Source of the DNA: Acholeplasmataceae bacterium
GTDB lineage: Bacteria; Bacillota_I; Bacilli_A; ML615J-28; CAG-698
Length of the DNA stretch: 64,000 nt
Assembly: GCA_012839485.1 (NCBI GenBank)
Contig: DUNF01000058.1
Span: 1,272 to 65,271 of the forward strand
Direction: 5' to 3'
The notes below the pieces were generated by a model. That model did not search any database and had not been told where the DNA came from. It was given only the letters and a program-made list of their open reading frames with translations. Every line of letters starts with the position of its first letter. Position 1 is the first letter of the stretch. This document shows, piece after piece, positions 3,475 to 56,988 of this stretch. The translations under genes and the position numbers were made by a program.

Positions 3475-3491
3475 ATACCAAGGTGGAGCTT

Positions 3492-17032: not shown

Positions 17033-17919
17033 TGAAAGTATTTGATATTCATAGTGATTTATTATATGACTTATTTAGAGGAAAAGGTGATAATAGATTT
17101 AAAGATATTCATGTAAAGCAATATAATAATTCTGTTATTAAAGGTGCAGTTTGGACTTTATATTCACCAGATGACTTTGATTTAAAAGAAGCAGTAAATT
17201 GTGCTTTAAAGAAAATTGATTGGAATGAATTAAAAGATTTTAAAGTTATTTTAGGTTTTGAAGGCTTAAGAAATTTAGAGAAGCCAGAAGATATTCGTTA
17301 TTTCTATAATTTAGGCTTTAGGCATGCTATGCTTACTTGGAACGAGGAAAACAAATATGCGACAGGTGTTAGTGGCCCAAAAGAATCTGGGTTAAAAGAA
17401 GAAGGTAAAAAGCTTTTAGATATAATGATTGAGCTTGATATGATTATTGATACAGCTCATTTAAATAAGAAAAGTTTTTACGATGTTTTAGAATATACTA
17501 ATCATAATATTGTTTATTCTCATGGTTTAGTTTATGATATTTGTGATCATAGAAGAAACCTAGATAAAGAGCAAATGCTTGCTTTAAAGAAAGCAAATGG
17601 TTTATTTGGTTTAACGCTAGCTAAAAATTTTGTAAGTAGAAAAGAAGAAGAAAGAGATTTAGAGCATTTCTTAGATCATGTAGACTTTGCAATTGAAGTT
17701 ATGGGTATAGATAATGTTTGCTTTGGCTTTGACTTTATGGATTATTTAGATGATGATTTTGAAAATGCGATGGTTAAAGAAGTTCCCGATGCTACAAAAG
17801 CCCATCTAATACTAGAAGGAATGAAAAAAAGAGGTTATAGTAAAGAAGATATTAAAAAAGTTGCTTGGGATAATTTCTATAATCGCTATGGAAACAAATT
17901 ATATAAAAGGAGTAAATAA
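17032..17919 (+). CDS. Membrane (renal)-type dipeptidase, peptidase family M19
   Basis: FDIHSDLLYD at the N-terminus and LTWNEENKYATG, typical M19. Its ATG overlaps the lysA stop codon. Confidence 0.75.
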   Translation: MKVFDIHSDLLYDLFRGKGDNRFKDIHVKQYNNSVIKGAVWTLYSPDDFDLKEAVNCALKKIDWNELKDFKVILGFEGLRNLEKPEDIRYFYNLGFRHAMLTWNEENKYATGVSGPKESGLKEEGKKLLDIMIELDMIIDTAHLNKKSFYDVLEYTNHNIVYSHGLVYDICDHRRNLDKEQMLALKKANGLFGLTLAKNFVSRKEEERDLEHFLDHVDFAIEVMGIDNVCFGFDFMDYLDDDFENAMVKEVPDATKAHLILEGMKKRGYSKEDIKKVAWDNFYNRYGNKLYKRSK

Positions 17920-19016
17920 TGTCGAAGATTAAATATTTAGATTCATTAATGGAACAAGCATTAAAAGACGAGGTTTTTCCTGGTTGTAATTATTGTTTGA
18001 TTGAAAGTGGAAATAAGCATTTTAATTCTTTTGGGTTTAAAGCTTTAATTCCTAAAAAGGAAGAAAATGATGTTGATACTATTTATGATATGGCTTCCCT
18101 TACTAAAGTTATTGCAACTGTTACATCAATTTTAATTTTGATGGAACAAGGGAAATTAAGATTATATGATAATGTAAAACAAATATTACCAGATTTTAAA
18201 AACCCTAAAACAACTGTTTTTGATTTAATTACCCACACAGCGGGATTAAAACCGGGAATTAGTTATACAGAATATATTGGTAAACCAAAAGAACAGTTTG
18301 TAAAGGCAATTTATGAATTAGAGCCAAGTAATGAAGTCGGTGAGAAAATCATTTACTCTGATTTAGGTTTTATTTATTTAGGCTGGATTATTGAGAAAAT
18401 TAGTGGTTTAAGTTTGCCTGAATTTACTTTTAAATATCTTTTTGAGCCATTAGAAATGTATCGTACAGGTTATAATTTAAGTCCAGATCTTCATAAAACA
18501 ATCGCTCCAACTGAGGTAAGAAAAGATAGGATTGCAAATGGTCCTGTAAGAGGAGTTGTTCATGATGAGAAAGCCTATCTTTTAGGTGGTGCTTGTGGCC
18601 ATGCTGGGCTATTTTCTTGTGTGAAAGATGTATCGCATTTTATGGAAATGGTTTTAAATGATGGTGTTTATAAAGGAAAGAGAATTTTATCTAAGGCTAC
18701 AATCGATTTAATGTTTACTGAACTTGCTAGTCAAAAAGAAAATGAGACAAGTGTAATTACAGAAAAAAGGTCAGTTGGGTGGACAATTATGGGTTCTTAT
18801 CCTCAATCTGGATGCCTTGCAAGTTCAAAAACTATTATGCATACTGGCTTTACAGGAACACATTTATTTATAGATAGATATAATCAAGTCGCATTTTGCG
18901 TATTGAGTAATAGAGTTCATCCAACTAGAGAGAATAATAAGATTATTGGATGGAGAGGAAGAATCGGAAATTACGTTATAAGTCATTTTGGGAAAGGATG
19001 TAAAGATGAAGTTTAA
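17919..19016 (+). CDS. Beta-lactamase-fold serine hydrolase (class C/AmpH family; possibly AmiE/YbbE-like MurNAc-L-Ala amidase)
   Basis: SxxK motif MASLTKV and YSDLGF (YxN-like position). No signal peptide. The amidase suggestion comes only from the family and the genomic context. Confidence 0.6.
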   Translation: MSKIKYLDSLMEQALKDEVFPGCNYCLIESGNKHFNSFGFKALIPKKEENDVDTIYDMASLTKVIATVTSILILMEQGKLRLYDNVKQILPDFKNPKTTVFDLITHTAGLKPGISYTEYIGKPKEQFVKAIYELEPSNEVGEKIIYSDLGFIYLGWIIEKISGLSLPEFTFKYLFEPLEMYRTGYNLSPDLHKTIAPTEVRKDRIANGPVRGVVHDEKAYLLGGACGHAGLFSCVKDVSHFMEMVLNDGVYKGKRILSKATIDLMFTELASQKENETSVITEKRSVGWTIMGSYPQSGCLASSKTIMHTGFTGTHLFIDRYNQVAFCVLSNRVHPTRENNKIIGWRGRIGNYVISHFGKGCKDEV

Positions 19017-37907: not shown

Positions 37908-37940
37908 AAAGGTGCTATTTTATAAATAGCACCTTTCTTT
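37908..37940 (+). terminator. Strong hairpin terminator/attenuator at the end of the 15.9-kb operon
   Basis: AAAGGTGCTATTT-tat-AAATAGCACCTTT (13-bp perfect stem), then CTTTTGTTT. The next SD follows immediately. Confidence 0.8.
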
Positions 37941-37957
37941 TGTTTAAGGAGGATTTG

Positions 37958-40219
37958 ATGAAACTAAAAGATTTAAGTTTAAAACAAAAAGTTGGACAAA
38001 TGCTTATGTTTAGTTTTCATGGAACTAGTTATAATGAACAAGTAGATTATCTTTTAAATGAGTTAAAGCTTGGAGGCTTGATTTTATTTAAAAGAAACAT
38101 TACTTCTTTAAAGCAAGTAAGCAAATTAAATAGCGAGATTTCTCAAGATAAAAAGATTAGACCATTTATTGCTTTAGACCAAGAAGGTGGACCAGTTCAA
38201 AGAATTGAAAAAGGAATAACACCACTTCTTTCTGCGATGGGTTTTGCAGCTAATGGAAAGGATCCATATGAGTTATATAAAGGGGCAGGTAGGGACTTAA
38301 AACATTTAGGTTTTAGTATTAACTTTGCTCCCGTAGCAGATGTTAATAATAATCCTTATAATCCTGTAATTAACTCAAGGAGTTATTCTGATAATCCAAA
38401 ACTTGTTTCAAGGTATGTTTTAAGAGCAAGTCAAGGATTTAAAGATGCTAAGCTAATTGCAACTGTTAAACATTTTCCAGGTCATGGTGATACGAATGTA
38501 GATAGTCATTTAGGTTTACCAATTGTCAATAAGTCTTTAGAAGAAATTGAAAAAGTAGAACTTTATCCTTTTAAAGAAGCTATTGAAAATGGGGCTAATG
38601 GAATAATGATGTCGCATATTGTTTATCAATGTTTAGATAAAGATAATCCTGCTAGCCTATCTTATAACATTATTACTAAACTTCTTAAAGAAAAGTTAGG
38701 ATTTAAAGGACTAGTTGTCACTGATTCATTAACAATGAAAGCTATTTGGGATAACTATAGTATTAAAGAGATTATCAAGAAAGGAGTCTTAGCGGGAAAT
38801 GATATTTTATGTTTCTGCGGTAAGGCTGATTTAAATGAACAAAAAGAAATCTATAATACTTTTGTTAGTTTAGTGGAAGAAGGAGAAATTCCTCTTTCAA
38901 GAGTAGATGAAGCAGTTAAGAAGATTTTAGAATATAAAGAAATTTATTTGGAAAAAGATTTAGATTTTGAAAACAATTTAAGTGTTATTAAAAAGGAAGA
39001 AAAATCTAAACTAGCAGAAGAGTTTGCTTTAGAATCAATTACTTTAGTAAAAGATAAGGGGCTAGTTCCAATAAAAAAACAAGAAAAGATTTTTGCGATC
39101 TTTCCGGAAATTAAACTATTTAGTTTAGTTGATAACAAAGAAAATGATTATTTTACTTTACAAGATTTCTTAGATTGTAATGAAGTTGTAATAAATAAAG
39201 AATTTACTAATTATAAGTTAATTAAGGATGAGATTAAAAAAGCAGATAAAGTAATCTTTTGTACTTATAATGTAACTAAGGGGGATTATCAAACTAAAGT
39301 TTGGGAAGTTCTAGATCCAAATAAAACAATTGTAGTTAGCATGAGATCACCTTATGATATCTTACATTTAGAAAATGTTGAGAGTTATATTTGCTTATAT
39401 GAAGCAACTTTACTTTCTTTGAAAAGTTTAGTAAAATTAATATATAGTGGTAAGTTTAAAGGAAGCTTGCCGATTAAATTAGAAGGAGGAAATATGAAAA
39501 TTATTAGAGTTAAAGACTATGAAGAAATGAGTAAAAAGGCCGCTGAAATAATAGCTGATGTAGTTAAGAAAAACCCTGCAGCTAATTTAGGTTTAGCTAC
39601 TGGTTCAAGTCCTTTAGGTACTTATGAAAATCTAATTAAAAAGTATAAAGCTAAAGAGATTTCTTTTAAAGATATAAAGAGTTTTAATTTAGATGAATAT
39701 TGCCAGTTAGATAAGAATCATGAGCAAAGCTATTATTCTTATATGAATGAAAACTTATTTAAACACATTGATATTAAAAAAGCAAATACTCATTTACCTT
39801 CATCTGAAGGAGATGACTTAGAAGCTAACTGTAAAAAGTATAATGATTTATTAAAGAAAAATCCTGTTGATTTACAGTTATTAGGAATTGGTGGTAATGG
39901 CCATATTGGTTTTAATGAACCTGGAACTGCCTTTACTCAAGAAACATTTGTAGTTAAGTTAGCTGAGAAAACAAGAGAAGATAATAAGAGATTTTTTGCA
40001 TCAATTGATGAGGTTCCAAAGTATGCAATTACGATGGGAATTAAGAATATTATGGATGCGAAAGCAATTTTGATGGTAATTAGTGGAAAAGGAAAGCAAG
40101 ATGCAGTTAATAAACTTTTATCTAAGAAAGTATCTGAAGATTTTCCAGCAAGCATTTTACATAAGCATCCAAATGTTACGGTAATTATTGATGATGCTGC
40201 ATATGGAGATAATAAATGA
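37958..40219 (+). CDS. nagZ-nagB: Fusion: GH3 beta-N-acetylglucosaminidase (NagZ-like) plus glucosamine-6-phosphate deaminase (NagB)
   Basis: ATG at 37958 follows AAGGAGG. GH3 motifs: ALDQEGGPVQR, KHFPGHGDTNVDSHL, VVTDSL. From the in-frame ATG at 39494 there is a complete NagB (MKIIRVKDYEEMSKKAAE, GLATGSSPLGTY, GIGGNGHIGFNEPG). No stop codon between the two parts. Confidence 0.85.
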   Translation: MKLKDLSLKQKVGQMLMFSFHGTSYNEQVDYLLNELKLGGLILFKRNITSLKQVSKLNSEISQDKKIRPFIALDQEGGPVQRIEKGITPLLSAMGFAANGKDPYELYKGAGRDLKHLGFSINFAPVADVNNNPYNPVINSRSYSDNPKLVSRYVLRASQGFKDAKLIATVKHFPGHGDTNVDSHLGLPIVNKSLEEIEKVELYPFKEAIENGANGIMMSHIVYQCLDKDNPASLSYNIITKLLKEKLGFKGLVVTDSLTMKAIWDNYSIKEIIKKGVLAGNDILCFCGKADLNEQKEIYNTFVSLVEEGEIPLSRVDEAVKKILEYKEIYLEKDLDFENNLSVIKKEEKSKLAEEFALESITLVKDKGLVPIKKQEKIFAIFPEIKLFSLVDNKENDYFTLQDFLDCNEVVINKEFTNYKLIKDEIKKADKVIFCTYNVTKGDYQTKVWEVLDPNKTIVVSMRSPYDILHLENVESYICLYEATLLSLKSLVKLIYSGKFKGSLPIKLEGGNMKIIRVKDYEEMSKKAAEIIADVVKKNPAANLGLATGSSPLGTYENLIKKYKAKEISFKDIKSFNLDEYCQLDKNHEQSYYSYMNENLFKHIDIKKANTHLPSSEGDDLEANCKKYNDLLKKNPVDLQLLGIGGNGHIGFNEPGTAFTQETFVVKLAEKTREDNKRFFASIDEVPKYAITMGIKNIMDAKAILMVISGKGKQDAVNKLLSKKVSEDFPASILHKHPNVTVIIDDAAYGDNK
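39483..39496 (+). promoter_or_regulatory. Internal Shine-Dalgarno plus ATG at the GH3/NagB junction
   Basis: AAGGAGG (39483-39489), 4 nt, ATG (39494), in frame inside the fusion ORF. Spacing is shorter than the 7-10 nt seen at other genes here. Confidence 0.5.
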
Positions 40220-44462: not shown

Positions 44463-44480
44463 AATTTAAAGATATAAACA

Positions 44481-44510
44481 AAACCACATGATTTTATCGT
44501 GTGGTTTTTT
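44481..44510 (+). terminator. Rho-independent terminator
   Basis: AAACCACATG-attttat-CGTGTGGTTT followed by TTTTT. Confidence 0.8.
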
Positions 44511-44522
44511 ATTTCTCTTTTA

Positions 44523-44551
44523 TTGTTATTTGACCTTAGATATGGTATAAT
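44523..44551 (+). promoter_or_regulatory. SigA promoter (extended -10) ahead of the DUF624-like gene and the MurNAc operon
   Basis: TTGTTA, 17 nt (incl. TGg), TATAAT (extended -10). Confidence 0.55.
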
Positions 44552-44574: not shown

Positions 44575-45375
44575 ATGGATGTAGAAAAGTATGTCAATAG
44601 TAAAGCTTTTATCTTTTTTGAGTGGACATATCGTTTAATAATAATGAATTTATTGAATCTTTCAATAATTATAACTATGAGTTTTGGTTTTTGGGTGCTA
44701 TTTATTGCCATTCAAAAAATGACTTATTTTTATCTAGCAATTCTACTAACGCTTTTGGGCTTAATTATTACTTCAATTGCTAGTTTTAAAACGATTAAAG
44801 ACTTAAGTGGGTACCGAAGGAGTGGTTTGTATAAAACCTATTTTTCCAATCTTTGGTTTAGTTTTAAAGATCTTTGGTTTATAGAACTGCTTATTGTAAT
44901 TATTTATGCCTTTCTATTAGGATCATCATTAACATATAGTTTGATTTTAAATCACGAAGATTTTACTTATGATTTTATAGGGATAGTTTATACCGTAGGT
45001 TACTGGCTTGATTGGATTTTATTATTTTTCTTAACTCAAGCTGTGATTTCGTTTTGGGCTGTCTATAGTCATTTTCAAATGACAAAGTGGAATTATATTA
45101 AAGCTAGTTTTTATATGTCTTTTAAGTTATTTTTACCAACATTGTTAGCGGGTATTTTCTTCTTTTTAACACCAGTTTTAATAATTGTTTTAGGTTTAAT
45201 TCTTAGTCCAATGTTATCATTGTTGCTTATTTCATTTTTTAGTTTATTTGGAATTACCTTGCCTCAGTATTTATACTTTAGAATGATAAAAGGCAAATAC
45301 GCATATCTTACAAAAAACCCTGATGATATTCAGGATTTCGATAAATATGAATTAGAAAAGGAGAATGAAATTTAA
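44575..45375 (+). CDS. Polytopic membrane protein, YesL/DUF624-like
   Basis: 266 aa with 6 hydrophobic spans. The N-terminal FFEWTYRLIIMNLLNL pattern and a location next to sugar-transport genes resemble DUF624 proteins. Tentative. Confidence 0.45.
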   Translation: MDVEKYVNSKAFIFFEWTYRLIIMNLLNLSIIITMSFGFWVLFIAIQKMTYFYLAILLTLLGLIITSIASFKTIKDLSGYRRSGLYKTYFSNLWFSFKDLWFIELLIVIIYAFLLGSSLTYSLILNHEDFTYDFIGIVYTVGYWLDWILLFFLTQAVISFWAVYSHFQMTKWNYIKASFYMSFKLFLPTLLAGIFFFLTPVLIIVLGLILSPMLSLLLISFFSLFGITLPQYLYFRMIKGKYAYLTKNPDDIQDFDKYELEKENEI

Positions 45376-45594: not shown

Positions 45595-47316
45595 ATGAAA
45601 AAAGTATTGAAATTTGTTTTAGTTCTTTTCCTTTTTGTAGTCTTAGTAGGTTGTAAGAAGGAAGAAGCATTTAAGGCTGTAGAGAATTTAATTGACAACA
45701 TCGGTGAAGTTACTCTAGAAGACGAAGCATTAATTAATGAAATTGAAGAAAAATTTAATGCTTTAAGTGAAGAAGATCAAGAGAAAGTTGCTAACTTAGC
45801 TGTTTTAGTAGATGCACAAGTTACGCTTGATAGTTTAAAATTCTTAGCTGAATTAGACATTAATTATGATGATGCAACTTTAGCTGTATTAACTGCTTTA
45901 AAAGGCAAGATTAACAATTTAAGTAATGATGTAGCTAATAAAATTCAAAATGAAATTAATGCAGCATTAGATAAAATTAATAAACACATTAAAAATTTAG
46001 AATTCGAAGCTGCTGTGTTAGCTTTAAATGGCGAGGTTGATAAAGAAGCATTAGCTCAACTAGACCTTGTATATGAATCTATAACAGAAGAGTTTAAAGC
46101 AAAACTTAAGGCAGATATTAAACAAACATATTTTACATTATCGGCGCAAGCTAAAGAACAAGGAGAAGAAAGAATGAAATTAAAATTAGGAATCGATCGT
46201 ATTGATGAACATTTAGATTTATTTGAAGGAAAGAGAGTAGGTTTAATTACTAACCCTACTGGGATAAATTCGAAATATCAATCTACAATTGATGTTTTGA
46301 ATGAGAAAACTAATTTAGTTGCTTTATTTAGTCCTGAGCATGGGGTAAGAGGGAACTTACAAGCTGGGATTAATTTAGGAACTTATGTAGACGAAGAGAC
46401 AGGGATTACTGTTTATTCGTTATATGGAGATACAAGAAAACCATCAAAAGAAATGTTAGACGAAATAGATATTTTATGCATAGATATTCAAGATGTTGGG
46501 GCAAGATTTTATACTTATGTTTATACGATGGCTTATTCAATGATGGCCTGTAAAGAAGAAGGAAAGAAGTTTGTAGTGTTTGATCGCCCAAATCCAATTA
46601 ATGCTTCTGATTATGAAGGCAATATTTTAGATATCAATTATCGTTCTTTTATTGGTTACTACCCAACAATCCAACGTCATGGAATGACAATTGGGGAACT
46701 TGCTTATTTATTTAATGAAGAGTTTGAGATTGGCTGTGATTTAGAAGTTATTAAGATGGCTAATTATGACCGCACTAAGTATTTAGATGAATTAGATATT
46801 TTATATGTTTATCCATCTCCTAACTTACCGACAGTTAATAGTTGTATTTTATATCCAGGTACATGTATTTTTGAAGGAACTAATCTGAGTGAAGGAAGAG
46901 GTACTGCAACTCCATTTGAGTTAATTGGGGCACCTTATATAAACTCAAAAGAATTAGCTGATAAATTAAATAGTATGAATATTGAAGGAGTTTACTTTAG
47001 ACCACAATACTTTACACCGATTTATTCGAAAAATAAAGATTTATTATGTGGTGGTGTGTATATTCACGTTTTAGATCGTAAGAAATTGAAGTCAGTATCG
47101 TTAGGGTTTATCTTACTTGATACAATTAGAAACTTATATCCAAATGACTTTAAAGTTAACCCACCTTGGAGCGAAGGCGGAAGAACGATGTTAGACTTAA
47201 ATACAGGGACAGATAAGATATCTAAATACTTACTTACTTTAGAAGAACAACTTGCTTGGATTAAAGAAGATACTAAAAAGTTTGGTGAGATTAGAAGTAA
47301 ATATTTAATTTATTAA
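45595..47316 (+). CDS. namZ: Lipoprotein form of exo-beta-N-acetylmuramidase NamZ (DUF1343/GH171) with a 193-aa helical N-terminal module
   Basis: Lipobox VLVGC, then helical repeats. From Met194 (46174, preceded by a vestigial AAGGAG) it reads MKLKLGIDRIDEHLDLFEGKRVGLITNPTGI...LFSPEHGVRG...DIQDVGARFYTY, the DUF1343 pattern. Confidence 0.75.
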   Translation: MKKVLKFVLVLFLFVVLVGCKKEEAFKAVENLIDNIGEVTLEDEALINEIEEKFNALSEEDQEKVANLAVLVDAQVTLDSLKFLAELDINYDDATLAVLTALKGKINNLSNDVANKIQNEINAALDKINKHIKNLEFEAAVLALNGEVDKEALAQLDLVYESITEEFKAKLKADIKQTYFTLSAQAKEQGEERMKLKLGIDRIDEHLDLFEGKRVGLITNPTGINSKYQSTIDVLNEKTNLVALFSPEHGVRGNLQAGINLGTYVDEETGITVYSLYGDTRKPSKEMLDEIDILCIDIQDVGARFYTYVYTMAYSMMACKEEGKKFVVFDRPNPINASDYEGNILDINYRSFIGYYPTIQRHGMTIGELAYLFNEEFEIGCDLEVIKMANYDRTKYLDELDILYVYPSPNLPTVNSCILYPGTCIFEGTNLSEGRGTATPFELIGAPYINSKELADKLNSMNIEGVYFRPQYFTPIYSKNKDLLCGGVYIHVLDRKKLKSVSLGFILLDTIRNLYPNDFKVNPPWSEGGRTMLDLNTGTDKISKYLLTLEEQLAWIKEDTKKFGEIRSKYLIY

Positions 47317-47327
47317 GGAGAAAATTA

Positions 47328-49949
47328 ATGAAAAAATTACATGAATTAACTTTAGAAGAAAAAATTGGCCAGTTGTTTATAGTTGGTTTTTATGGCGAGG
47401 AGTTTAATAACGATTTACTTAATTTAATTAAAGATTATAAAATCGGAAATGTAATTTTATTTTCTCGTAATATTTCTGCGGTAAAACAGTTATATAAATT
47501 AAATAAAGATATCCATACTAATATGGAAAAACATTTAGGAATTATGCCTTTCATTACAATTGACCAAGAAGGAGGAATGGTTACAAGAATCTTTAATGAT
47601 GCAACTTTTTTTCCTGGGGCAATGACAATTGGAGCAACAAAGCTTGATAATGCTTATTATGTGGGGCAAAAGATGGGAGATGAGTTAAGAGCTTTAGGAA
47701 TTAACTTTAACTTAGCCCCAACATTAGATGTGAATAATAATCCTCATAATCCGGTAATTGGTGTTAGAAGTTATTCAAGCAGTGAAAAACAAGTTGCAAA
47801 CTATGGCATAGCTTATATTAAAGGGTTACAAGAAAAAGGAATTATTGCAACTGCAAAACATTTTCCTGGTCATGGAGATACAAATATTGATAGTCATTTG
47901 GGACTGCCAATAATTGAACATTCAAAAGACCGTTTAAATAGAATTGAACTTTATCCATTTAAAAAAGCTATAGCTTCAGGTTTAGATGCGATTATGAGTG
48001 CGCATATTATTTTTAAAGCATATGATAGTGAAAAACCAGCTACTTTATCTAAAGCAGTATTAACTGATCTTTTAAAAAAAGAGTTGGGATTTGAAGGTTT
48101 GATTGTAAGTGACTGTATGGAAATGAAAGCTATTGATGATACAGTTACTGCACCAGTTGGTGTTTTAGAAGGTTTACTTGCAGGGCTGGATATGGTTTTT
48201 GTAAGTCAAACACCTGCCAAACAAATGAAAGCAGTAGAACTTGTGAAGGAAGCAGTGTTAAATGGAAAGTTTCCTTTAGATTTATTAGATGAAAAAGTAG
48301 AAAAGATATTAAAATATAAAGCTAAATCATACGAACTATTAAAGAATGAATTTTTTAGTAAAACATATAATGAGCAAGAAGAAATATTGCTTAATCCAGA
48401 AACTAAAGCTAAAGCTTTAGAGATTGTAGCTGAATCGTTAACTTTAGTAAAAGGAGATAATGTAAATCCAAGTTTAAAAACTTTAGTTTTAGCTCCAGAT
48501 CCATTTGCCTCTACAATCATTGAAGATGAGTTTTCTAAAAATGATCGTTCAATTTACGATATGGTAAGATTAGAAAATAATCCTAACTTAGTTCCTTATC
48601 GAATTAAGATTAAACCTTCAAAAGAAGAAATAGATAAATATTTAGAATTAGCAAAAGATTATAAACAAATAGTTTTATGTACATATAATGCTACAATTAA
48701 CCGAGGCCAAATTGAACTTGTTAGAAAACTAAATAATTTGGATAAAAAGTTATATGTAATTAGTATGAGAAATCCTTTTGATATTTTAAACTTTAAGGAA
48801 GTTTCTAATTACTTAGCATTATATGAATACACACCTAATTCAATTAAAGTTTTAATTAGTTATTTAAATGGCGAAATTAAACCAAAAGGGAAATTACCTG
48901 TTTCTTTAAAGGAAAAAACCGAGTTTGGTGCAAGTGTTTATTTAGGTTTAGATGATTATAAATTGGAAGATAATTTAAAATATTTAGAAAAGTTAAAGAA
49001 AAATGGCTTTAGTTTTGTTTTTGTATCGATGCATATGCCTGAAGCAGGAAGTCATGTTTATGATGAGTTTTTAGCGATTAAGGATAAAGCTAAAAGTTTA
49101 GGTTTAGAGTTAATAGTTGATGTTTCTAAACCAACTTTTGATAAACACAAGATGTTTGGTGTTGATCGTATTCGTTTAGACTGGGGTTTTAGTAAAGAAG
49201 ATATCGTTGATTTAGTTTTAGATGGTTATGATATTGAACTTAATGCTTCGACTTTAACGGAAGAGTTAGTTGATTATTTAAAAGAAAGAATAGATTTATC
49301 TTTAGTAACGGTTAGTCATAATTTTTATCCAAAGAAATATACTGGGTTAAAATATGAAGATGTGAAGGAAAGAAACAACTTTTTAAACAATTTAGGTTTT
49401 AAAGTTATGGGCTATATTGCATCGCTAGAAAACAAAAGACCTCCTTTATATCTAGGATTACCTACAGTAGAAACAATGAGAAAGATGCCAGTTTTTCTTC
49501 AAAAACAAGAAATGGAACTTTTAGGTTTTTCGAAAATTTGTTTTGGAGATGCGATTATTAGCAATAAAGAATTAAAAGAGTTAACAGAAGAAAAGGAATA
49601 TTTTACTGTACCTTTAGTTTTAAAAAAGGGAATTTCAGAAAAAGAAAAAGAAATTATTAATAAAGTTCATCGTGTTAGAATTGATCAATCAGAGTATATG
49701 ATTCGTAGTACTAAATATCGCGGAGAAAAAGGAATTGAACCAAATAATACAGAGAAAAGATCAAAGTATGATATTACGATTGATAATGATTTGATGAAGA
49801 GATATTCTGGTGAATTAAATATTATGCTAACTGATTTAGAAGCCGATAAAGCAGTTAACGTAGTTGGTAGAGCAATTTTGAGTGATTTTAGTTTAGACTA
49901 TTTAAAGATGCAAATACCATTTGTTTTTGAAGTTATTGGAGAAGAATAA
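47328..49949 (+). CDS. nagZ-mupG: Fusion: GH3 beta-N-acetylglucosaminidase (NagZ-like) plus DUF871/MupG-type 6-phospho-N-acetylmuramidase (GH170)
   Basis: GH3 motifs: TIDQEGGMVTR, KHFPGHGDTNIDSHL, IVSDCM, ending at KGKLPVSL. After a 6-aa linker comes GASVYLGLDDYKLEDNLKYLEKLKKNGFSFVFVSMHMPE, a DUF871-type N-terminus, and ~340 further aa. No signal peptide. Confidence 0.75.
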   Translation: MKKLHELTLEEKIGQLFIVGFYGEEFNNDLLNLIKDYKIGNVILFSRNISAVKQLYKLNKDIHTNMEKHLGIMPFITIDQEGGMVTRIFNDATFFPGAMTIGATKLDNAYYVGQKMGDELRALGINFNLAPTLDVNNNPHNPVIGVRSYSSSEKQVANYGIAYIKGLQEKGIIATAKHFPGHGDTNIDSHLGLPIIEHSKDRLNRIELYPFKKAIASGLDAIMSAHIIFKAYDSEKPATLSKAVLTDLLKKELGFEGLIVSDCMEMKAIDDTVTAPVGVLEGLLAGLDMVFVSQTPAKQMKAVELVKEAVLNGKFPLDLLDEKVEKILKYKAKSYELLKNEFFSKTYNEQEEILLNPETKAKALEIVAESLTLVKGDNVNPSLKTLVLAPDPFASTIIEDEFSKNDRSIYDMVRLENNPNLVPYRIKIKPSKEEIDKYLELAKDYKQIVLCTYNATINRGQIELVRKLNNLDKKLYVISMRNPFDILNFKEVSNYLALYEYTPNSIKVLISYLNGEIKPKGKLPVSLKEKTEFGASVYLGLDDYKLEDNLKYLEKLKKNGFSFVFVSMHMPEAGSHVYDEFLAIKDKAKSLGLELIVDVSKPTFDKHKMFGVDRIRLDWGFSKEDIVDLVLDGYDIELNASTLTEELVDYLKERIDLSLVTVSHNFYPKKYTGLKYEDVKERNNFLNNLGFKVMGYIASLENKRPPLYLGLPTVETMRKMPVFLQKQEMELLGFSKICFGDAIISNKELKELTEEKEYFTVPLVLKKGISEKEKEIINKVHRVRIDQSEYMIRSTKYRGEKGIEPNNTEKRSKYDITIDNDLMKRYSGELNIMLTDLEADKAVNVVGRAILSDFSLDYLKMQIPFVFEVIGEE

Positions 49950-50866
49950 TGAAGAAAGCAATGATAGGTGTTGATGCTGGTGGCTCTTCAACAAAACTAG
50001 CCTTGTTTTTAGAAGATGGGACGATTGTAAAGAAACTAAAAGCTAAGGCAGGATCTAGTGCATCAGTTAAATCAGCTTTGGAGAATGTAGAAGAAGGGGT
50101 TTATAAGTTGTACGAAGAAGTTAAAAATGAGTATGACTTAAAAGCTATCGTTATTGGTTTAAGTGGACTTAAAGCTAATTCTAAAGAATCTTTAGAAAAG
50201 TTAGTTTCTAATTTAAAAGCAAAAACTAATCTTGATGTATTATTAAACCCTGATACTTTAATTGCTTTATACTCTCATTTAAAAGATGAATATGAAGAAG
50301 GAATTGTTGTTATATCTGGTACTGGTCATGCTTCTTTTGGTTTAAATAAAAATGGTAAATCAATGATGATTGGTGGCTGGGGGTATATGATTTATGAAAT
50401 CGGTAGTGCCTTTAGTGCTGTTCAAGATTTAATTATTAAATCAGTTAGGCATTATGAAGAAGAAGGTAAAGTCTATCCGTTAGCCCAATCTTTAATAAAA
50501 GCAATTGGTTTAAGCACAATAGATGACTTAAGAGTATTTATGTATCATAATGATAAAAAAGAGATTGCAAGTTATGCTTATTTAATTACTGATGGAGCTA
50601 AAGCTGGAGATAGAATAGCCTTAGAGATTTTAGATGATGCAAGTAAAGGTATTGCTAGGTCAATTAAATTACTTGTAAAGCATTTAGAATTAAAGGAAAC
50701 TGCTGTTTTGGGATTTACAGGAGAATATATTAAAAACTCTAAAATCTTACAAGAATTAGTATTAGAAAAATTACAGAAAGAGAAGATAAAGTTAAAATAT
50801 TTAGAAGGTAGTATTGACCCTATTTATGGAGCCTATTACCTAGCTAGGAAGAAAGGCAAAATATGA
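49949..50866 (+). CDS. BadF/BadG/BcrA/BcrD-type ATPase; putative GlcNAc/MurNAc kinase (MurK-like)
   Basis: IGVDAGGSSTKLALF phosphate-1 motif and VISGTGHASFG. The family includes the clostridial MurNAc/GlcNAc kinase MurK. Confidence 0.65.
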   Translation: MKKAMIGVDAGGSSTKLALFLEDGTIVKKLKAKAGSSASVKSALENVEEGVYKLYEEVKNEYDLKAIVIGLSGLKANSKESLEKLVSNLKAKTNLDVLLNPDTLIALYSHLKDEYEEGIVVISGTGHASFGLNKNGKSMMIGGWGYMIYEIGSAFSAVQDLIIKSVRHYEEEGKVYPLAQSLIKAIGLSTIDDLRVFMYHNDKKEIASYAYLITDGAKAGDRIALEILDDASKGIARSIKLLVKHLELKETAVLGFTGEYIKNSKILQELVLEKLQKEKIKLKYLEGSIDPIYGAYYLARKKGKI

Positions 50867-51993
50867 AAGTTATTGGTTTAATGAGTGGGACATCTTTAGA
50901 TGGTGTAGATGCTGCATTAGTAGAAATCAAAGGTAAAAAAGTTCAACTTTTGAATTTTGTTACTTATCCTTATCCTAAAGAGTTCAAAGCTAAACTAAAA
51001 AAGAATTTAAATAACGAACAAGCAAAATTAGAAGAAATCTGCAGTTTGAATTTTGAACTTGGAGATTATTTTGTTTACGCAATTGATGAAGTTTTAAAAG
51101 ACAAATATAGTTATGATGATATTGATTTAGTTGCAAGCCATGGTCAAACAATTTGGCATAATCCTAAAGGATTAAAAGGCCAAAGAGCATCTACCTTACA
51201 AATAGGAGAAGCAGCTGTAATTGTGGCTAAGACAAACATCACAACAGTATCTAATTTTAGAGTTAAAGATGTAGCCTTAGATGGTGAAGGTGCACCACTT
51301 GTTCCTAAAACTGACTTTTTGCTTTATCATAACAATAAGAAAAACATTGTCTTACAAAATATTGGTGGTATTGGTAACTTAACATATTTACCAAAAGATG
51401 CTAAGGAAGATGAAATTTTGGCGTTTGATACTGGCCCAGGTAATGTAATGATTGATTACTTTATGCACAAGTATTATGGCAAAGCTTATGATGAAGATGG
51501 TAAAAAAGCCTTTAAAGGAATAATTATTAAACCTTTATATGATTATTTAATGAGTGATAAATTTATAAAAAAAGCTCCACCTAAGAGTACAGGTAGAGAG
51601 CAATATAATGAAACGTTTTTTGAAAGTTTAGTTAAGAAGTTCAATTTAGACCAATATAGTAAAGAAGATGTTATTTGTACAGTTACAAATATTACAGTAG
51701 ATTCTATTGTCTATAACTATGAGAAGTACTTAAAAGAGATTGATTTAGTTGTAGTTACTGGAGGAGGATCACATAATAAATACGTAGTATCCGAGTTAGG
51801 AAAAAGACTAGGAGTTGAAGTGGTTACAGGAACTGACTACGGAATTGAAAATGATGCTAAGGAAGCTTTAAGTTTTGCTTATTTAGGATATTTAAGTTTT
51901 AACTATAAAACAGGAAACTTGAAATCAGTTACTGGAGCTAAAGAAAATACTATTTTAGGAAATATTACTTATGGAAGGTATCGCCATGGTTGA
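50863..51993 (+). CDS. anmK: Anhydro-N-acetylmuramic acid kinase
   Basis: MKVIGLMSGTSLDGVDAALVEI, SHGQTIWH, FDTGPGNVMID; 376 aa. Confidence 0.85.
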   Translation: MKVIGLMSGTSLDGVDAALVEIKGKKVQLLNFVTYPYPKEFKAKLKKNLNNEQAKLEEICSLNFELGDYFVYAIDEVLKDKYSYDDIDLVASHGQTIWHNPKGLKGQRASTLQIGEAAVIVAKTNITTVSNFRVKDVALDGEGAPLVPKTDFLLYHNNKKNIVLQNIGGIGNLTYLPKDAKEDEILAFDTGPGNVMIDYFMHKYYGKAYDEDGKKAFKGIIIKPLYDYLMSDKFIKKAPPKSTGREQYNETFFESLVKKFNLDQYSKEDVICTVTNITVDSIVYNYEKYLKEIDLVVVTGGGSHNKYVVSELGKRLGVEVVTGTDYGIENDAKEALSFAYLGYLSFNYKTGNLKSVTGAKENTILGNITYGRYRHG

Positions 51994-52897
51994 TTTAAGT
52001 AAACTAACAACAGAAAAAAGAAATAAGAATACTTATGATATTGATAGTTTAGATAGTTTAGGAATTATCAAGAAAATCAATGAAGAAGATAAACAAATTG
52101 CTTATGAAATTGAAAAGCATTTAGAAGAAATTGCTTCAGTAATTGATGATGTAGTAAAAAGTTTTCTAGAAGGTGGAAGACTTATTTATATTGGTGCTGG
52201 TACTAGTGGAAGGTTAGGGATTTTAGATGCAGTTGAATGCCCACCTACATTTAGTGTGGATTTTGAGCAAGTTCAGGGGTTGATCGCAGGGGGAGAGAGA
52301 GCATTTATCAAAGCGGTAGAAGGAGCTGAAGATAATAAAGAGTTAGCTGTAAAAGATTTAAAAGCAATTAATTTGTCTGATAAAGATACTTTAATTGGTT
52401 TAAGTGCTAGCGGTAGAACCCCTTATGTAGTTTCTGGCATAGAATATGGCAATAAAATTGGTGCCAAAACAGCTTCAATTGCAACATCTTTAAATAGTGA
52501 AATTGGTAAGATTGCGAAGAAGAAAATTGAAGTTGTAACTGGTGCTGAAGTTTTAACCGGTTCTACCAGACTAAAATCAGGAACTGCTCAGAAGATGATT
52601 TTAAATATGATCTCAACTGCTAGTATGATTCAAATGGGTAAAGTTTATGAGAACTTAATGATTGATGTTAACCCTACAAATGAAAAGTTAGTTGCAAGAG
52701 CATTGTCAATTATTCAAGATATTACAAAAGTAGAAAAAGAAGAAGCTGCTTTGAAATTAAAGCGATATAAAACAGTAAAAAAGACTATTTTTCATTTACT
52801 AACTAAGGAAGAATCTTTAGAAAAAATAGATTATTACTTAAATAAAAATCATGGACATTTACGAAAGGCAATAGCTAGTTATGGTAAAAAGTGTTGA
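51986..52897 (+). CDS. murQ: N-acetylmuramic acid 6-phosphate etherase
   Basis: LTTEKRNKNTYDID, IYIGAGTSGRLGILDAVECPPTF and TGSTRLKSGTAQKM are SIS-domain MurQ signatures. ATG at 51986 follows GGAAGG; the track start is 51971. Confidence 0.85.
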   Translation: MVDLSKLTTEKRNKNTYDIDSLDSLGIIKKINEEDKQIAYEIEKHLEEIASVIDDVVKSFLEGGRLIYIGAGTSGRLGILDAVECPPTFSVDFEQVQGLIAGGERAFIKAVEGAEDNKELAVKDLKAINLSDKDTLIGLSASGRTPYVVSGIEYGNKIGAKTASIATSLNSEIGKIAKKKIEVVTGAEVLTGSTRLKSGTAQKMILNMISTASMIQMGKVYENLMIDVNPTNEKLVARALSIIQDITKVEKEEAALKLKRYKTVKKTIFHLLTKEESLEKIDYYLNKNHGHLRKAIASYGKKC

Positions 52898-53615
52898 TTT
52901 AAAAAATGGCGATTATACTTTAAGAGGTATATATAGTAAAGGTGAAAGTGAAAAGATAGTAATTATGTTTCATGGCTATACTGGTCATAAAGTAGAACAT
53001 AATGGAATGTTTCGAAGTTTATCAAGGATTTTATTAAAAGAAGATATCTCTTCTTTAAGATTTGACTATTATGGCAATTTTGATAGTGATGGTGAGTTTA
53101 CTGATTTTACCTTTGATACACTATTTAGCGATGCTAGATGTATTATTAAATACGCTTATGATTTAGGCTATAAGGAAGTTGTTTTATTAGGCTATTCAAT
53201 GGGTGGCGCTTTAGCTTTAGCAGTTGCTCATGAAGAAGCAAGAATAAAAAAGGTAGTTGTTTGGAATCCTGCTGGTAATATTAATGAGCTTGTGAAAAGA
53301 AGATATGAGATTACTGAAAAGGATGAAAAAGGTAATACAATTACTTTAAACTTTTCTTTATCAAAAGCGATGTTTGATTCTAGTTTTAAATATAAGTGGT
53401 ATGAGCTAGCAAGTAAATATCAAGGAAAAGCTTATGTAATTAAAGGCGCTAAAGATTTAGCTGTGCCTTTGTTATATAACGATAAATATTTAGAAGTGTT
53501 AAAAAATAAGGTTTCTTTTATTATCAAAGATGGAGACCATGGTTTTGATAATAAAAAAGATCAAGAGTTATTATATAAGAAAACGATAGAATATATTAAG
53601 GAGGAAGAAAGTTGA
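52881..53615 (+). CDS. Alpha/beta-hydrolase (serine esterase/peptidase)
   Basis: Nucleophile elbow GYSMGGA, an HG oxyanion motif (MFHGYTG), and a C-terminal DGDHGF. Confidence 0.65.
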   Translation: MVKSVDLKNGDYTLRGIYSKGESEKIVIMFHGYTGHKVEHNGMFRSLSRILLKEDISSLRFDYYGNFDSDGEFTDFTFDTLFSDARCIIKYAYDLGYKEVVLLGYSMGGALALAVAHEEARIKKVVVWNPAGNINELVKRRYEITEKDEKGNTITLNFSLSKAMFDSSFKYKWYELASKYQGKAYVIKGAKDLAVPLLYNDKYLEVLKNKVSFIIKDGDHGFDNKKDQELLYKKTIEYIKEEES

Positions 53616-54400
53616 AAATTATAGTATGTATTAAACAAGTACCTGCAAGTACTGAGGTAGAAATAGATCCCATTACAGGTAACTTAATTAGAGATGGTCG
53701 AAATGCGAAGATGAATCCTTATGATTTATATGCGATTGAAACAGCTTTAAGAATTAAAGAGTTCAATGGTGCTCATGTAGCTACAATCTCAATGGGTCCA
53801 CCTTCAGCTTTAGCAGTATTGAATGAATCTTTATGGATGGGTTGTGATGATGCTACAATCATGACTGATCGTAAATTTGGGGGAGCTGATGTTGTAGCAA
53901 CTAGCTATACTTTAGCTCAAGGAATTAAATTAATAGGCGGAGCTGATTTGATTATCTGTGGTAAACAAACAACAGATGGTGATACTGCTCAAGTAGGACC
54001 GGAAATAGCTGAGAATTTAAAGATTCCTCATTTATGTTATGTAGATAAGATTATCGAAATTAAGGAGAAATCAATTGTTGTTCAAGTAGATATGGATCAT
54101 ACTGAAGAAGTATGGGAGATTGATTATCCGTGTTTAATTACGGTAAATAAAGGTATTTTCACACCAAGACTTCCTTCTTATAGAAGAAGCAAAAAGTTTA
54201 AAGATTATGAAATTAGACAAATTCATTTTAGTGATATGGTTGATCAAAATGAAGCGCATTATGGTCTAAAAGGGTCGCCAACACAAGTTGAAAGAATGTT
54301 CCCGCCAATTAAAAATACTGATAAAGAATTATGGGAAGATACTGATGAAAATTTAGCTTTGAAATTGTCTAACAAATTAAAGGAAATGAAGGTAGTATAA
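53612..54400 (+). CDS. etfB: Electron transfer flavoprotein beta subunit (LctB-like)
   Basis: MKIIVCIKQVP..., NPYDLYAIE, ICGKQTTDGDTAQVGP. TTG start 7 nt after AGGAGG. Confidence 0.85.
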   Translation: MKIIVCIKQVPASTEVEIDPITGNLIRDGRNAKMNPYDLYAIETALRIKEFNGAHVATISMGPPSALAVLNESLWMGCDDATIMTDRKFGGADVVATSYTLAQGIKLIGGADLIICGKQTTDGDTAQVGPEIAENLKIPHLCYVDKIIEIKEKSIVVQVDMDHTEEVWEIDYPCLITVNKGIFTPRLPSYRRSKKFKDYEIRQIHFSDMVDQNEAHYGLKGSPTQVERMFPPIKNTDKELWEDTDENLALKLSNKLKEMKVV

Positions 54401-54401
54401 G

Positions 54402-55604
54402 ATGGCTAAAAAAGGAATTATTGTAGTTAACAAGAGTAACGTAAATAAAGATTTAATTGAAGATTATGTTAAGAGTTGTCCTTTTAAGGCGATTGTAGCT
54501 AAAGATGGTAGTGTTGATGTTGATCAATCTGCTTGTAAGATTTGTCGAATATGTGCTAAAAAGTTTGCTGATGTTTTTAAGTTTCAAGAAATTGAAGAAG
54601 AAAAGATTAATAAAGATGAGTGGGTAGGAATTACTGTTTTTATTGAACATGATGGAAATAAAATTCACCCAGTATCATTAGAATTAATCGGGAAATCTAA
54701 AGAGCTTGCAAAGGTAACTGGACATCCAGTTTATGCTATACTTTTTAGTGATGATGCAAATAAATTTACCGACACTTTATTAGCTTATGGAGTTGATAAA
54801 GTATACTCATATGAGCATAAACTACTAGGACATTTTAACGTAGAATATTATGTAGAAGTGATGGCGGATTTTGTTTCGAAAGTGAAACCTTCAACAATCC
54901 TTTATGGTGGTACAGCAATTGGTAGAAGCTTTGCCCCAAGAGTTGCAGCAAGACTTAAGACTGGTTTGACTGCTGACTGTACAATTTTGGATATGAAAAA
55001 GAATACAGATTTAGTCCAAAATCGTCCTGCTTTTGGTGGTAACATTATGGCTGGAATTATTTGTGAGAACACAAGACCACAAATGGCTACAGTTCGTTAT
55101 AAGATCTTCAAAATGCCAGAAAAGGTTAAACCTTTTGGTGCTGTTGAAAAGATGAGTTTGAAAGATATTAAGTTTAAAACTAATATGAGATTAGTTGAAA
55201 CAAAAGAAAAGCCAAAAGAAATTGATATTTCTGAGGCAGATACAATCGTATGTATTGGGAAACCATTTAAAACTAAAGAACAAATTCAAATGGCAAAAGA
55301 ATTTGCTGATTTAATTGGGGCACAACTTGCTTGTACTAGACCACTTGTAGAGGCAGGAGTTATGCCAGCTACAAGACAAATTGGCCTAAGTGGTAGAACA
55401 GTTTCGCCTAAACTTCTTGTTTGTTTGGGTATTAGTGGAGCTGTTCAATTTACTGCGGGAATGAAAGGCAGTGAAGTAGTTTTCGCTGTTAACAATGATA
55501 AAAATGCAGCTATTTTTGACTTTGTTCATTATGGTTTAGTAGGGGATATTTTTACAATACTACCTGAATTAATTAAGACTTTGAAAGGGGAAGAAGATGT
55601 ATAA
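54402..55604 (+). CDS. etfA: Electron transfer flavoprotein alpha subunit with N-terminal ferredoxin-like [4Fe-4S] domain (LctC-like)
   Basis: N-terminal Cys pattern SCPF...CKICRIC. The Etf-alpha core has GGTAIGRSFAPRVAARL, RPAFGGN and GISGAVQFTAGM. Confidence 0.8.
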   Translation: MAKKGIIVVNKSNVNKDLIEDYVKSCPFKAIVAKDGSVDVDQSACKICRICAKKFADVFKFQEIEEEKINKDEWVGITVFIEHDGNKIHPVSLELIGKSKELAKVTGHPVYAILFSDDANKFTDTLLAYGVDKVYSYEHKLLGHFNVEYYVEVMADFVSKVKPSTILYGGTAIGRSFAPRVAARLKTGLTADCTILDMKKNTDLVQNRPAFGGNIMAGIICENTRPQMATVRYKIFKMPEKVKPFGAVEKMSLKDIKFKTNMRLVETKEKPKEIDISEADTIVCIGKPFKTKEQIQMAKEFADLIGAQLACTRPLVEAGVMPATRQIGLSGRTVSPKLLVCLGISGAVQFTAGMKGSEVVFAVNNDKNAAIFDFVHYGLVGDIFTILPELIKTLKGEEDV

Positions 55605-56988
55605 AAAAGTGACAAACAAAGATGTTTTGGCTTTAGAGAAATTAATTGATAAAACAAGAGTTTTTATTTATGATGATTCAATTTCAGAATATTCAAAAGA
55701 TGAACTTGGTACTTTAATTGGTAAGCCAGAAGTGATTGTGAAAGTAGAATCGACTAAAGAAGTATCTAAAGTTGCTAAATATGCTTATGACAATAACATT
55801 CCATTAACTGTAAGAGGAAGTGGAACTGGTTTAGTTGGGGCATGTGTACCATTATATGGTGGTATTGTTTTGGATATGACTTTAATGAATAAAATTATTA
55901 ATTTAGATGAAGAAAACCAAATTTTAGAAGTTGAAGCGGGAGCATTACTAATGGATATTGCTGATTATACTAAAGCAAGAGGTTATCTATATGCTCCAGA
56001 TCCAGGCGAAAAATCGGCAACAATAGGTGGTAATATTACAACTAACGCTGGTGGTATGAGAGCCGTAAAGTATGGAGTTACTAGAGATTGGGTCCGTGCT
56101 TTAGAAGTAGTTTTAATGGATGGAACAATTTTAGAGTTTGGGAAGAAAGTTGTAAAAGATACTTCAGGTTATTCTTTGAAGAACTTAATTATTGGTAGTG
56201 AAGGGACACTAGCAATTGTAACTAAAGCTTATTTAAAGGTAGTTTCACTACCTGAAAAAAGTTTAAGTTTACTTGTTCCTTATGCTAGTTTAGAAAAAGC
56301 TATTGAACAAGTTCCGAAGATTTTGAATTCAGGAACTAATCCAACAGCAATTGAGTTTTTTACAAGAGAAGCTTTAGAGTATTCAGAGACGTTTTTAGGT
56401 AAAAAGTTCCCAGATCAAAACAGTCCTGCTTATATTTTACTTACTTTTGATGGTTCGCAAGCTGAGGTAGATGAGAATGCTAAGAAGGCGTCAGAACTAT
56501 TAATTAACAAGTTTGAAGCAGTAGATGTTTTGATTGTTGATACTGATGAAAGAAACGAAGATGTTTGGAGTGCTAGGAGTTCTTTCTTAGAAGCTATTAA
56601 AGCTTCTACACCTTTAATGGATGAGTGTGATGTAGTAGTGCCACGTTCTGAAGTGAGCGATTATATTAAATACACTTATGAGTTAGAAGAAAAGTATGGC
56701 TTAAGACTTCCTTCATTTGGCCATGCTGGTGATGGTAATTTACATATTTATATTTGTAAAGATGACTTATCAGATGAAGAATGGGAAGTGAAACTAGATC
56801 TAGTATTCCATGATTTATATAAGAGAGCTAAAGAAGTTGGTGGTTTAGTATCAGGAGAACACGGAATTGGCTATGCTAAGATGGAATATTTAAAAGAATC
56901 ATTAGGAGATGTGCAAATTAATTTAATGAGAAATATTAAAGCAGCATTCGATCCTAAAAATCTTTTAAATCCAGGAAAAATAGTGTAA
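55597..56988 (+). CDS. FAD-linked oxidase, GlcD/LctD-type (D-)lactate dehydrogenase
   Basis: VRGSGTGLVG, GGNITTNAGGMRAVKYG and GEHGIGYAK are FAD_binding_4/GlcD motifs. Overlaps etfA by 8 nt. Confidence 0.75.
   Translation: MYKKVTNKDVLALEKLIDKTRVFIYDDSISEYSKDELGTLIGKPEVIVKVESTKEVSKVAKYAYDNNIPLTVRGSGTGLVGACVPLYGGIVLDMTLMNKIINLDEENQILEVEAGALLMDIADYTKARGYLYAPDPGEKSATIGGNITTNAGGMRAVKYGVTRDWVRALEVVLMDGTILEFGKKVVKDTSGYSLKNLIIGSEGTLAIVTKAYLKVVSLPEKSLSLLVPYASLEKAIEQVPKILNSGTNPTAIEFFTREALEYSETFLGKKFPDQNSPAYILLTFDGSQAEVDENAKKASELLINKFEAVDVLIVDTDERNEDVWSARSSFLEAIKASTPLMDECDVVVPRSEVSDYIKYTYELEEKYGLRLPSFGHAGDGNLHIYICKDDLSDEEWEVKLDLVFHDLYKRAKEVGGLVSGEHGIGYAKMEYLKESLGDVQINLMRNIKAAFDPKNLLNPGKIV

Follow-up and report, generated by a model that had tools for sequence, protein, structure and literature searches.

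A predicted NagZ-MupG bifunctional exo-glycosidase in a phosphotransferase-free peptidoglycan sugar operon of Acholeplasma-like bacteria

Of the MupG/DUF871 proteins of glycoside hydrolase (GH) family 170, one has been characterised biochemically and a second by genetics, and both depend on the phosphotransferase system (PTS) (PMC6262408, PMC12791066). The substrates of both are supplied by the PTS, through MurP or ChbC, and both proteins act on, and need, 6-phospho-disaccharides (PMC6262408, PMC12791066). The family also includes paralogues that differ in specificity (PMC6262408, discussion; ChbE in PMC12791066), and its catalytic residues have not been published (PMC6262408). According to Müller et al. 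(2021, PMC8054146), genomes with a MupG-like protein lack the exo-beta-N-acetylmuramidase NamZ. We analysed a stretch of 64,000 nucleotides (the window, to which all plain positions refer) from an Acholeplasmataceae bacterium (GCA_012839485.1, contig DUNF01000058.1, positions 1,272 to 65,271), the source genome being a fragmented metagenome-assembled genome (MAG) of 939 kb in 124 contigs that is 88.7% complete. One gene of this window (47328-49949, + strand) joins a GH3 module to a MupG module. Its product is predicted to be a genuine, conserved, cytoplasmic NagZ-MupG bifunctional exo-glycosidase, and the PTS-free operon in which it lies would feed on imported peptidoglycan sugars, with the fusion as its exo-glycosidase.

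The open reading frame encodes 873 amino acids, begins with an ATG downstream of an AGGAG-type ribosome-binding site and has no internal stops. Pfam profiles assigned residues 8-329 to Glyco_hydro_3 (PF00933; E 5.6e-93, 312 bits against a cut-off of 27), residues 533-753 to MupG_N (PF19200; E 7.5e-51, 173 bits) and residues 763-867 to MupG_C (PF05913; E 5.7e-26, 91 bits), the last two also scoring above their cut-offs. The GH3 module (residues 1-527; 47328..48908, + strand) runs to KGKLPVSL527 and is followed by the six-residue linker KEKTEF (residues 528-533; 48909..48926, + strand), after which GASVYLGL begins at G534; the MupG_N TIM-barrel domain spans 48924..49586 and the MupG_C domain 49614..49928, both on the + strand. 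An earlier interpretation of this DNA made from its letters alone (the sequence-only reading) had proposed that a GH3 domain is fused to a full DUF871 domain, which is borne out by these matches within one uninterrupted frame, and had placed the junction exactly here. It had also named the profiles by which to confirm this: Glyco_hydro_3 and DUF871 (as MupG_N and MupG_C) were recovered, but Glyco_hydro_3_C was not detected in the fusion protein by Pfam. An AlphaFold model of the whole fusion, built on 49 homologues, had a pLDDT of 88.4 and a pTM of 0.76.

The GH3 module passed the NCBIfam equivalog model for NagZ (NF003740; 212.9 bits against a cut-off of 207). Residues 6-526 aligned end to end with the two-domain, 535-residue GH3 N-acetylglucosaminidase 6k5j (E 1.4e-104), on which the AlphaFold model superposed with a TM score of 0.90. 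These sequence and fold matches indicate that the C-terminal GH3 domain is present despite the silent Pfam model, and the alignment of the N-terminus with 6k5j from residue 6 onwards indicates that the fusion protein has no signal peptide. The 6k5j protein is a cytoplasmic GH3 of Paenibacillus sp. FPU-7, and we take it to be a chitin-oligosaccharide-degrading enzyme. In NagZ enzymes of family GH3, an Asp-His dyad and an Asp nucleophile carry out catalysis. The NagZ signature KH(F/I)PG(H/L)Gx4D(S/T)H, which contains the dyad, is present at residues 177-190 as KHFPGHGDTNIDSH, and the nucleophile context SDCMEM (residues 261-266) aligned with TDCLEM of 6k5j and 4zm6. D262, H178, H182, D188 and H190 were invariant in 49 fusion proteins.

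The MupG half matched both of the solved DUF871 structures in the PDB (2p0o, E 3.7e-31; 1x7f, E 1.7e-25). Family-conserved positions, taken as those at least 85% conserved in 125 MupG homologues from outside the fusion's own clade, numbered 40 and were all kept, 39 of them identical and one, at residue 696, with a conservative change from F to Y; they include eight arginines and seven Asp/Glu residues. From these matches, the C-terminal half is predicted to be a bona fide MupG/DUF871 (GH170) module. A different GH170 fusion architecture was seen in the representative library, in which P0249 (554 aa) is a MupG homologue with an extra GNAT-like C-terminal domain of about 200 residues.

We examined the distribution of this architecture in a collection of 5.8 billion proteins. 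GH3 and MupG_N were found in each of the 120 best relatives (45-93% identity), and MupG_C in all except one partial sequence. Independent assemblies contained the same 873-aa architecture in proteins that are 93% and 88% identical to the fusion (P0002 and P0003; loci L016 and L017), which argues against an assembly artefact. A triple fusion of about 1177 aa, GH3-MupG-BadF/BadG kinase, accounted for 16 of the 120 best relatives (protein clusters). MupG was present in 84 of the 106 genomes of the order to which the window belongs, which comprises two families. In the window's own family the MupG frames were mostly fused (850-897 aa), with one genus carrying triple fusions of 1181-1185 aa, whereas in the sister family MupG was mostly a stand-alone protein of 342-371 aa and the fusion's GH3 (GH3b) did not occur at this position. 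Among 400 genomes sampled from the class, fused frames were limited to this order of Acholeplasma-like MAGs, and all of the MupG frames listed from outside it were 240-412 aa long, that is, unfused. The species representatives bearing the fusion are MAGs named Acholeplasma sp., Acholeplasmataceae, Mollicutes, Tenericutes and Bacilli bacterium, together with a few evidently mislabelled bins, and several of them come from biogas and wastewater studies. The fusion is therefore the common state in its family and not a peculiarity of the source genome. A literature search found no paper describing a GH3-MupG fusion or a PTS-independent MupG. Public records call these proteins either only "beta-N-acetylhexosaminidase" or only "MupG family protein", so that the other half is hidden, which is a problem of annotation.

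A phylogenetic tree was inferred with FastTree from 278 MupG domains, in which the PTS-linked MupG of Halanaerobium stood in for S. aureus MupG and ChbE. The MupG domains of the order formed a single clade with a support of 99, with the PTS-linked Halanaerobium MupG outside it. Most of the fused MupG domains fell into one sub-clade (support 93), besides which there was a small second fused group, and the triple fusions had a single origin (support 100). Fitch parsimony on this tree gave nine changes between the fused and stand-alone states and one change for the triple fusion; several of the nine are gene-call fragments or frameshifts. At locus L010, GH3 and MupG are two genes that overlap by ATGA, the TGA stop and ATG start lying at the place homologous to the linker. 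This overlapping pair suggests that the fusion required only a small change, the loss of a stop together with a shift of frame, between neighbouring genes, and the fusion appears to have arisen from neighbours with overlapping stop and start codons. In Coprobacillus sp. CAG:698 (L011:8960-9120, on the same contig as L035), the GH3/MupG junction is frameshifted in a run of ten A residues. The +2 frame runs on from there into the MupG domain, as might result from a sequencing error or a slippery run.

Genome-wide profile searches for PTS EIIC and HPr found neither in the source genome nor in two congeners, one of which is 98% complete. The sequence-only reading had noted no MurNAc (N-acetylmuramic acid) PTS in the window and had named a murP or other PTS system encoded outside it as the observation that would make the pathway conventional; none was found in the window, in the genome at large or in the congeners. 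EIIC scored above its cut-off in eight of the 106 genomes of the order. The three of these proteins that were examined (L096:5989-8115, L098:5855-7999 and L099:2131-4236) are about 700 aa long and consist of a cellobiose-type EIIC followed by a C-terminal EAL cyclic di-GMP phosphodiesterase; they are not MurP-like transporters, and no HPr was found in the three genomes that encode them. Such EIIC-EAL proteins may be sugar-sensing receptors rather than transporters. PTS independence thus holds for the genome and for the order, and the MupG module here must work without a PTS. No SEDS (FtsW/RodA) or penicillin-binding protein (PBP) transpeptidase genes were found in the window's own genus, which is therefore probably wall-less, whereas relatives with the same fusion hold both. 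A wall-less genus implies that the operon probably serves the scavenging of foreign peptidoglycan rather than recycling.

The gene directly downstream encodes a MurK-like sugar kinase of the BadF/BadG type (49949..50866, + strand), the ATG of which overlaps the TAA stop of the fusion gene by one nucleotide (TAATG). The kinase matched PF01869 with 88 bits, and its best match in the PDB was the MurNAc/GlcNAc (N-acetylglucosamine) kinase 8zo3, presumably a Clostridium acetobutylicum enzyme, at a moderate E value of 7.9e-24; no NCBIfam equivalog scored above its cut-off. The third domain of the triple fusions aligned with the window's kinase over its full length (35% identity, 6e-57). The orthologous kinase was adjacent to MupG in 54 of the 84 MupG-positive genomes of the order and lay elsewhere or at a contig break in five. 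A complementarity of kinase and PTS, in which a few kinase-less MupG genomes seemed to have a PTS EIIC, was considered and dropped, because the EIIC proteins concerned are the EIIC-EAL fusions.

NamZ is encoded immediately upstream of the fusion (45595..47316, + strand; NamZ_N and NamZ_C). The protein of the window has a lipoprotein leader with a lipobox (…LVGC; MKKVLKFVLVLFLFVVLVGC) and a helical N-terminal module of about 190 aa (45595-46240), both of which are absent from the NamZ of all relatives, where the protein starts at MKLGID… with the catalytic domain first. NamZ is thus predicted to lie at the cell surface in this bacterium and in the cytoplasm in its relatives. As NamZ carries the leader here, the MupG module would be the only cytoplasmic muramidase of this genus. 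NamZ and MupG are neighbouring genes here and throughout the order, so that this clade contradicts the published mutual exclusion of the two (PMC8054146).

The operon probably starts at a promoter-like site (TTGTTA-17-TATAAT with TG; 44523..44551, + strand), identified by a consensus scan and preceded by a terminator-like hairpin at 44480-44508. Hairpin and promoter-like site, both upstream of position 44575, suggest an operon that extends from a gene for 266 aa to that for lactate dehydrogenase. The 266-aa protein (44575..45375, + strand) matched no Pfam or NCBIfam model; all related loci examined, from either family, have a gene at this spot immediately before namZ, with BLASTP homology to 44575..45375 in most. 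Downstream of the kinase follow AnmK, an anhydro-MurNAc kinase (50863..51993; Pfam and NCBIfam), the MurNAc-6-phosphate (MurNAc-6P) etherase MurQ (51971..52897; TIGR00274, 370 bits) and an alpha/beta hydrolase (52881..53615; Pfam) that always comes after murQ in related loci, all on the + strand. The gene of this hydrolase overlaps murQ and etfB, and its product may act as a de-O-acetylase to free O6 of MurNAc. EtfB, EtfA and a FAD-linked oxidase, resembling the lactate dehydrogenase LctBCD, lie at 53612-56988 and form the end of the operon here and in several relatives, in a position that fits the oxidation of D-lactate released by MurQ. NagA is encoded elsewhere in the genome, as are two ROK kinases. 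Profile searches confirmed the neighbourhood of ABC permeases, BadF/BadG kinase, AnmK and MurQ that had been proposed from the letters alone.

The conserved gene order runs from the permeases through GH3a, NagB, (GNAT), a Big_2 protein and an unknown gene to NamZ and [GH3b], and continues with MupG, [kinase], AnmK, MurQ, the alpha/beta hydrolase and EtfBA/FAD-lactate dehydrogenase. GH3a is the other GH3 paralogue of the window (37940..40219, + strand; Pfam, NCBIfam and synteny); it is 38% identical to the GH3 module and fused to NagB. Both paralogues are indeed fusions in the window, as the sequence-only reading had stated, but in the relatives examined from the same family (L002, L003 and L010) GH3a and NagB lie side by side as two genes. 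The argument for substrate channelling that had been built on the two fusions is consequently weak, the more so as the steps are non-consecutive and GH3 and MupG may also be two genes (L010). In the sister-family loci L004 (14444-17956), L005-L009 and L015, a protein of 1000-1170 aa is encoded between NagB and the GNAT gene; the one member of this group that was scanned, that of L004, had no Pfam match. Elsewhere in the window (3483-4211, 7327-8130 and 17032-19016) are a GDPD glycerophosphodiesterase, an M55 D-aminopeptidase, an M19 dipeptidase and a beta-lactamase-fold protein. The GDPD protein is a GlpQ-like candidate for the scavenging of teichoic-acid or phospholipid head groups, and the other three are candidates for stem-peptide processing.

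We tentatively favour a reading, to which we give somewhat less than an even chance, in which the coupled kinase phosphorylates the MurNAc exposed by GH3, so that GH3, kinase and MupG alternate along imported glycan fragments. The GH3 module, judging from its family membership and intact motifs, would remove non-reducing GlcNAc from GlcNAc-MurNAc, GlcNAc-anhydro-MurNAc and longer glycan fragments. The translationally coupled MurK-like kinase would then use ATP to add a 6-phosphate to the MurNAc just exposed, an ATP-dependent kinase being the most probable source of this phosphate because no PTS exists. The MupG module, to judge by the two studied members of its family and its full residue conservation, would remove the non-reducing MurNAc-6-phosphate. 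Alternation of the three along a fragment would yield GlcNAc and MurNAc-6P, with AnmK dealing with anhydro ends and NagA and NagB completing the route, and the triple fusion would carry all three activities on one chain. The action of MupG on a phosphodisaccharide made by a kinase, as the sequence-only reading had suggested, is favoured by the triple fusions, the TAATG overlap and the frequent adjacency. Several observations weigh against it. The orthologous kinase is absent from 25 of the 84 MupG-positive genomes, so that the link is strong but not obligatory; in the kinase-less loci checked, MupG has beside it a tRNA synthetase, a WYL regulator and proteins of unassigned family, but no alternative kinase. 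A Haloplasmataceae locus has the order NamZ-GH3-kinase-AnmK without MupG, and a kinase that also occurs without MupG may be an ordinary MurK for free MurNAc and GlcNAc; to our knowledge, monosaccharides are the only substrates reported for MurK. The cytoplasmic NamZ of the relatives adjoins MupG, which makes MupG look redundant there, since NamZ, GH3 and MurK would already suffice. Finally, the clade of the order matched Pfam MupG_N at about 1e-50 to 1e-60, and PTS-linked Bacilli matched it far more strongly, at 1e-80 to 1e-100, indicating a divergent subfamily whose specificity may differ.

The kinase-less genomes are explained at once if the phosphate is already present in the food, that is, if MupG acts on MurNAc-6P at the teichoic-acid attachment sites of scavenged Gram-positive walls. 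We know of no catabolic route for the 6-phospho-MurNAc left at such sites. The polymer, a wall teichoic acid or another secondary polymer joined through a phosphodiester to O6 of MurNAc, would be removed, the fragment imported by the ABC transporter, its GlcNAc cap taken off by GH3 and MurNAc-6P freed by MupG for MurQ, no kinase being involved, while NamZ would take care of the unphosphorylated residues. This would also account for the systematic pairing of namZ with mupG as neighbours, would give a logic to the fusion of a cap-removing GH3 with MupG and would suit an organism without SEDS and PBP, hence living on foreign walls; the phosphodiester linkage of wall teichoic acid to C6 of MurNAc is established (PMC9616470). 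The proposal is nevertheless purely inferential, it requires an ABC importer that accepts phosphorylated fragments, no enzyme that trims the polymer down to MurNAc-6P was identified in the operon, and the strong link to the kinase, like the triple fusion, would reflect no more than membership of a common pathway; we consider it unlikely. A MupG module that needs no phosphate at all, acting as a cytoplasmic exo-muramidase on MurNAc-beta-1,4-GlcNAc or related glycosides, would fit the absence of a PTS, a kinase that is not universal, the divergence of the clade from PTS-linked MupGs and the usefulness of a cytoplasmic muramidase in a genus that exports NamZ. It is nonetheless improbable, given that every family-conserved residue is retained, including the eight arginines, that in most relatives this very reaction is already provided for by a cytoplasmic NamZ encoded alongside and that both studied GH170 members need 6-phospho substrates (PMC6262408, PMC12791066).

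The phosphate could also be kept and the sugar changed. For ChbE of Lacticaseibacillus paracasei, GlcNAc-6P-GlcNAc has been proposed as substrate (PMC12791066), and if the present module cleaved this or another phospho-glycoside, the use of the fusion would extend beyond peptidoglycan to fragments of chitin or N-glycans. GH170 paralogues of other specificity (PMC6262408, PMC12791066) lend themselves to this view, as does a GH20-like gene upstream of the fusion in the window. A further pointer is that 6k5j, the solved structure most similar to the GH3 module, is presumably a chitin-oligosaccharide enzyme. We rate it as decidedly unlikely, because the module lies invariably between NamZ, AnmK and MurQ, all of them specific for MurNAc, and because its similarity to the MupG of the Halanaerobium murQ-murP-mupG-murR cluster (39%, 6e-62) is as high as that to sister-family members. 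A fusion created by errors of assembly or annotation, or one that survives only as an inactive relic, might be suspected from the fragmented MAG of 124 contigs and from the relative that is frameshifted at the junction, but has a negligible probability in view of the same architecture in more than 100 protein clusters from independent assemblies, of the conserved catalytic motifs in both halves and of the uninterrupted reading frame.

Taken more broadly, the Acholeplasma-type GH170 proteins, whether fused to NagZ or alone after NamZ, may represent a PTS-independent use of a phospho-muramidase, as part either of an ATP-driven exo-depolymerase with three activities or of an enzyme for 6-phospho-MurNAc at teichoic-acid sites, a generalisation that is possible but that we hold to be rather doubtful. 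What is new is a GH170 group that has no PTS to supply it, is joined covalently to NagZ and in some cases also to a MurK-like kinase, and is restricted to uncultured Acholeplasma-like bacteria. A large clade in PTS-free, partly wall-less bacteria would imply a second mode of substrate supply for this family. It bears on the intracellular breakdown of glycan strands by the wall-eating bacteria of digesters and sediments, and on the existence of disaccharide kinases or of a catabolism of teichoic-acid-linkage remnants; the system would gain in interest should the kinase turn out to act on disaccharides or oligosaccharides, or should the module clear such remnants.

Among the known systems, S. 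aureus MupG (SAUSA300_0192, GH170; Kluj et al. 2018, PMC6262408) shares with the protein described here the two-domain DUF871 fold, the family-conserved residues, an operon with murQ, a cytoplasmic location and, presumably, exo-lytic removal of MurNAc-6P. It consists, however, of MupG alone (about 350 aa) and receives its substrate from the PTS transporter MurP, whereas the present module, whose activity is predicted, lies behind a GH3 module in a PTS-free setting with a kinase and AnmK adjacent, and is part of a divergent clade confined to Acholeplasma-like bacteria. The NamZ/NagZ/AmiE system of B. subtilis (PMC8054146) likewise trims non-reducing ends alternately with a glucosaminidase and a muramidase, and NamZ lies directly upstream here; the B. 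subtilis system is extracellular and feeds a MurP PTS, and the paper on it reports a mutual exclusion across genomes of MupG and NamZ, which are neighbouring genes in the window and throughout its order. B. subtilis NagZ/YbbD (3bmx, 4gyj) and 6k5j have the same two-domain GH3 structure, signature motif and context of the Asp nucleophile, but the B. subtilis enzyme is a secreted lipoprotein with an extracellular location, whereas the fusion lacks a leader and continues into a GH170 module at its C-terminus. As in the MurK (8zo3) system, an ATP-dependent kinase of the BadF/BadG type, next to murQ, would replace the PTS in MurNAc catabolism; the similarity is moderate (E 8e-24), and the kinase is here translationally coupled to GH3-MupG and, in some genera, covalently fused with it. 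A PTS-independent route through MurT, MurK and MurQ operates in Tannerella forsythia. The cluster of Halanaerobium saccharolyticum (L067), murQ-murP(EIIBC)-mupG-murR-GH3, also combines a MupG (39%) with an orthologous GH3 (43%) in one MurNAc cluster, but as separate genes, with a MurP-like EIIBC and MurR between them, and represents the conventional, PTS-coupled version of the arrangement found here.

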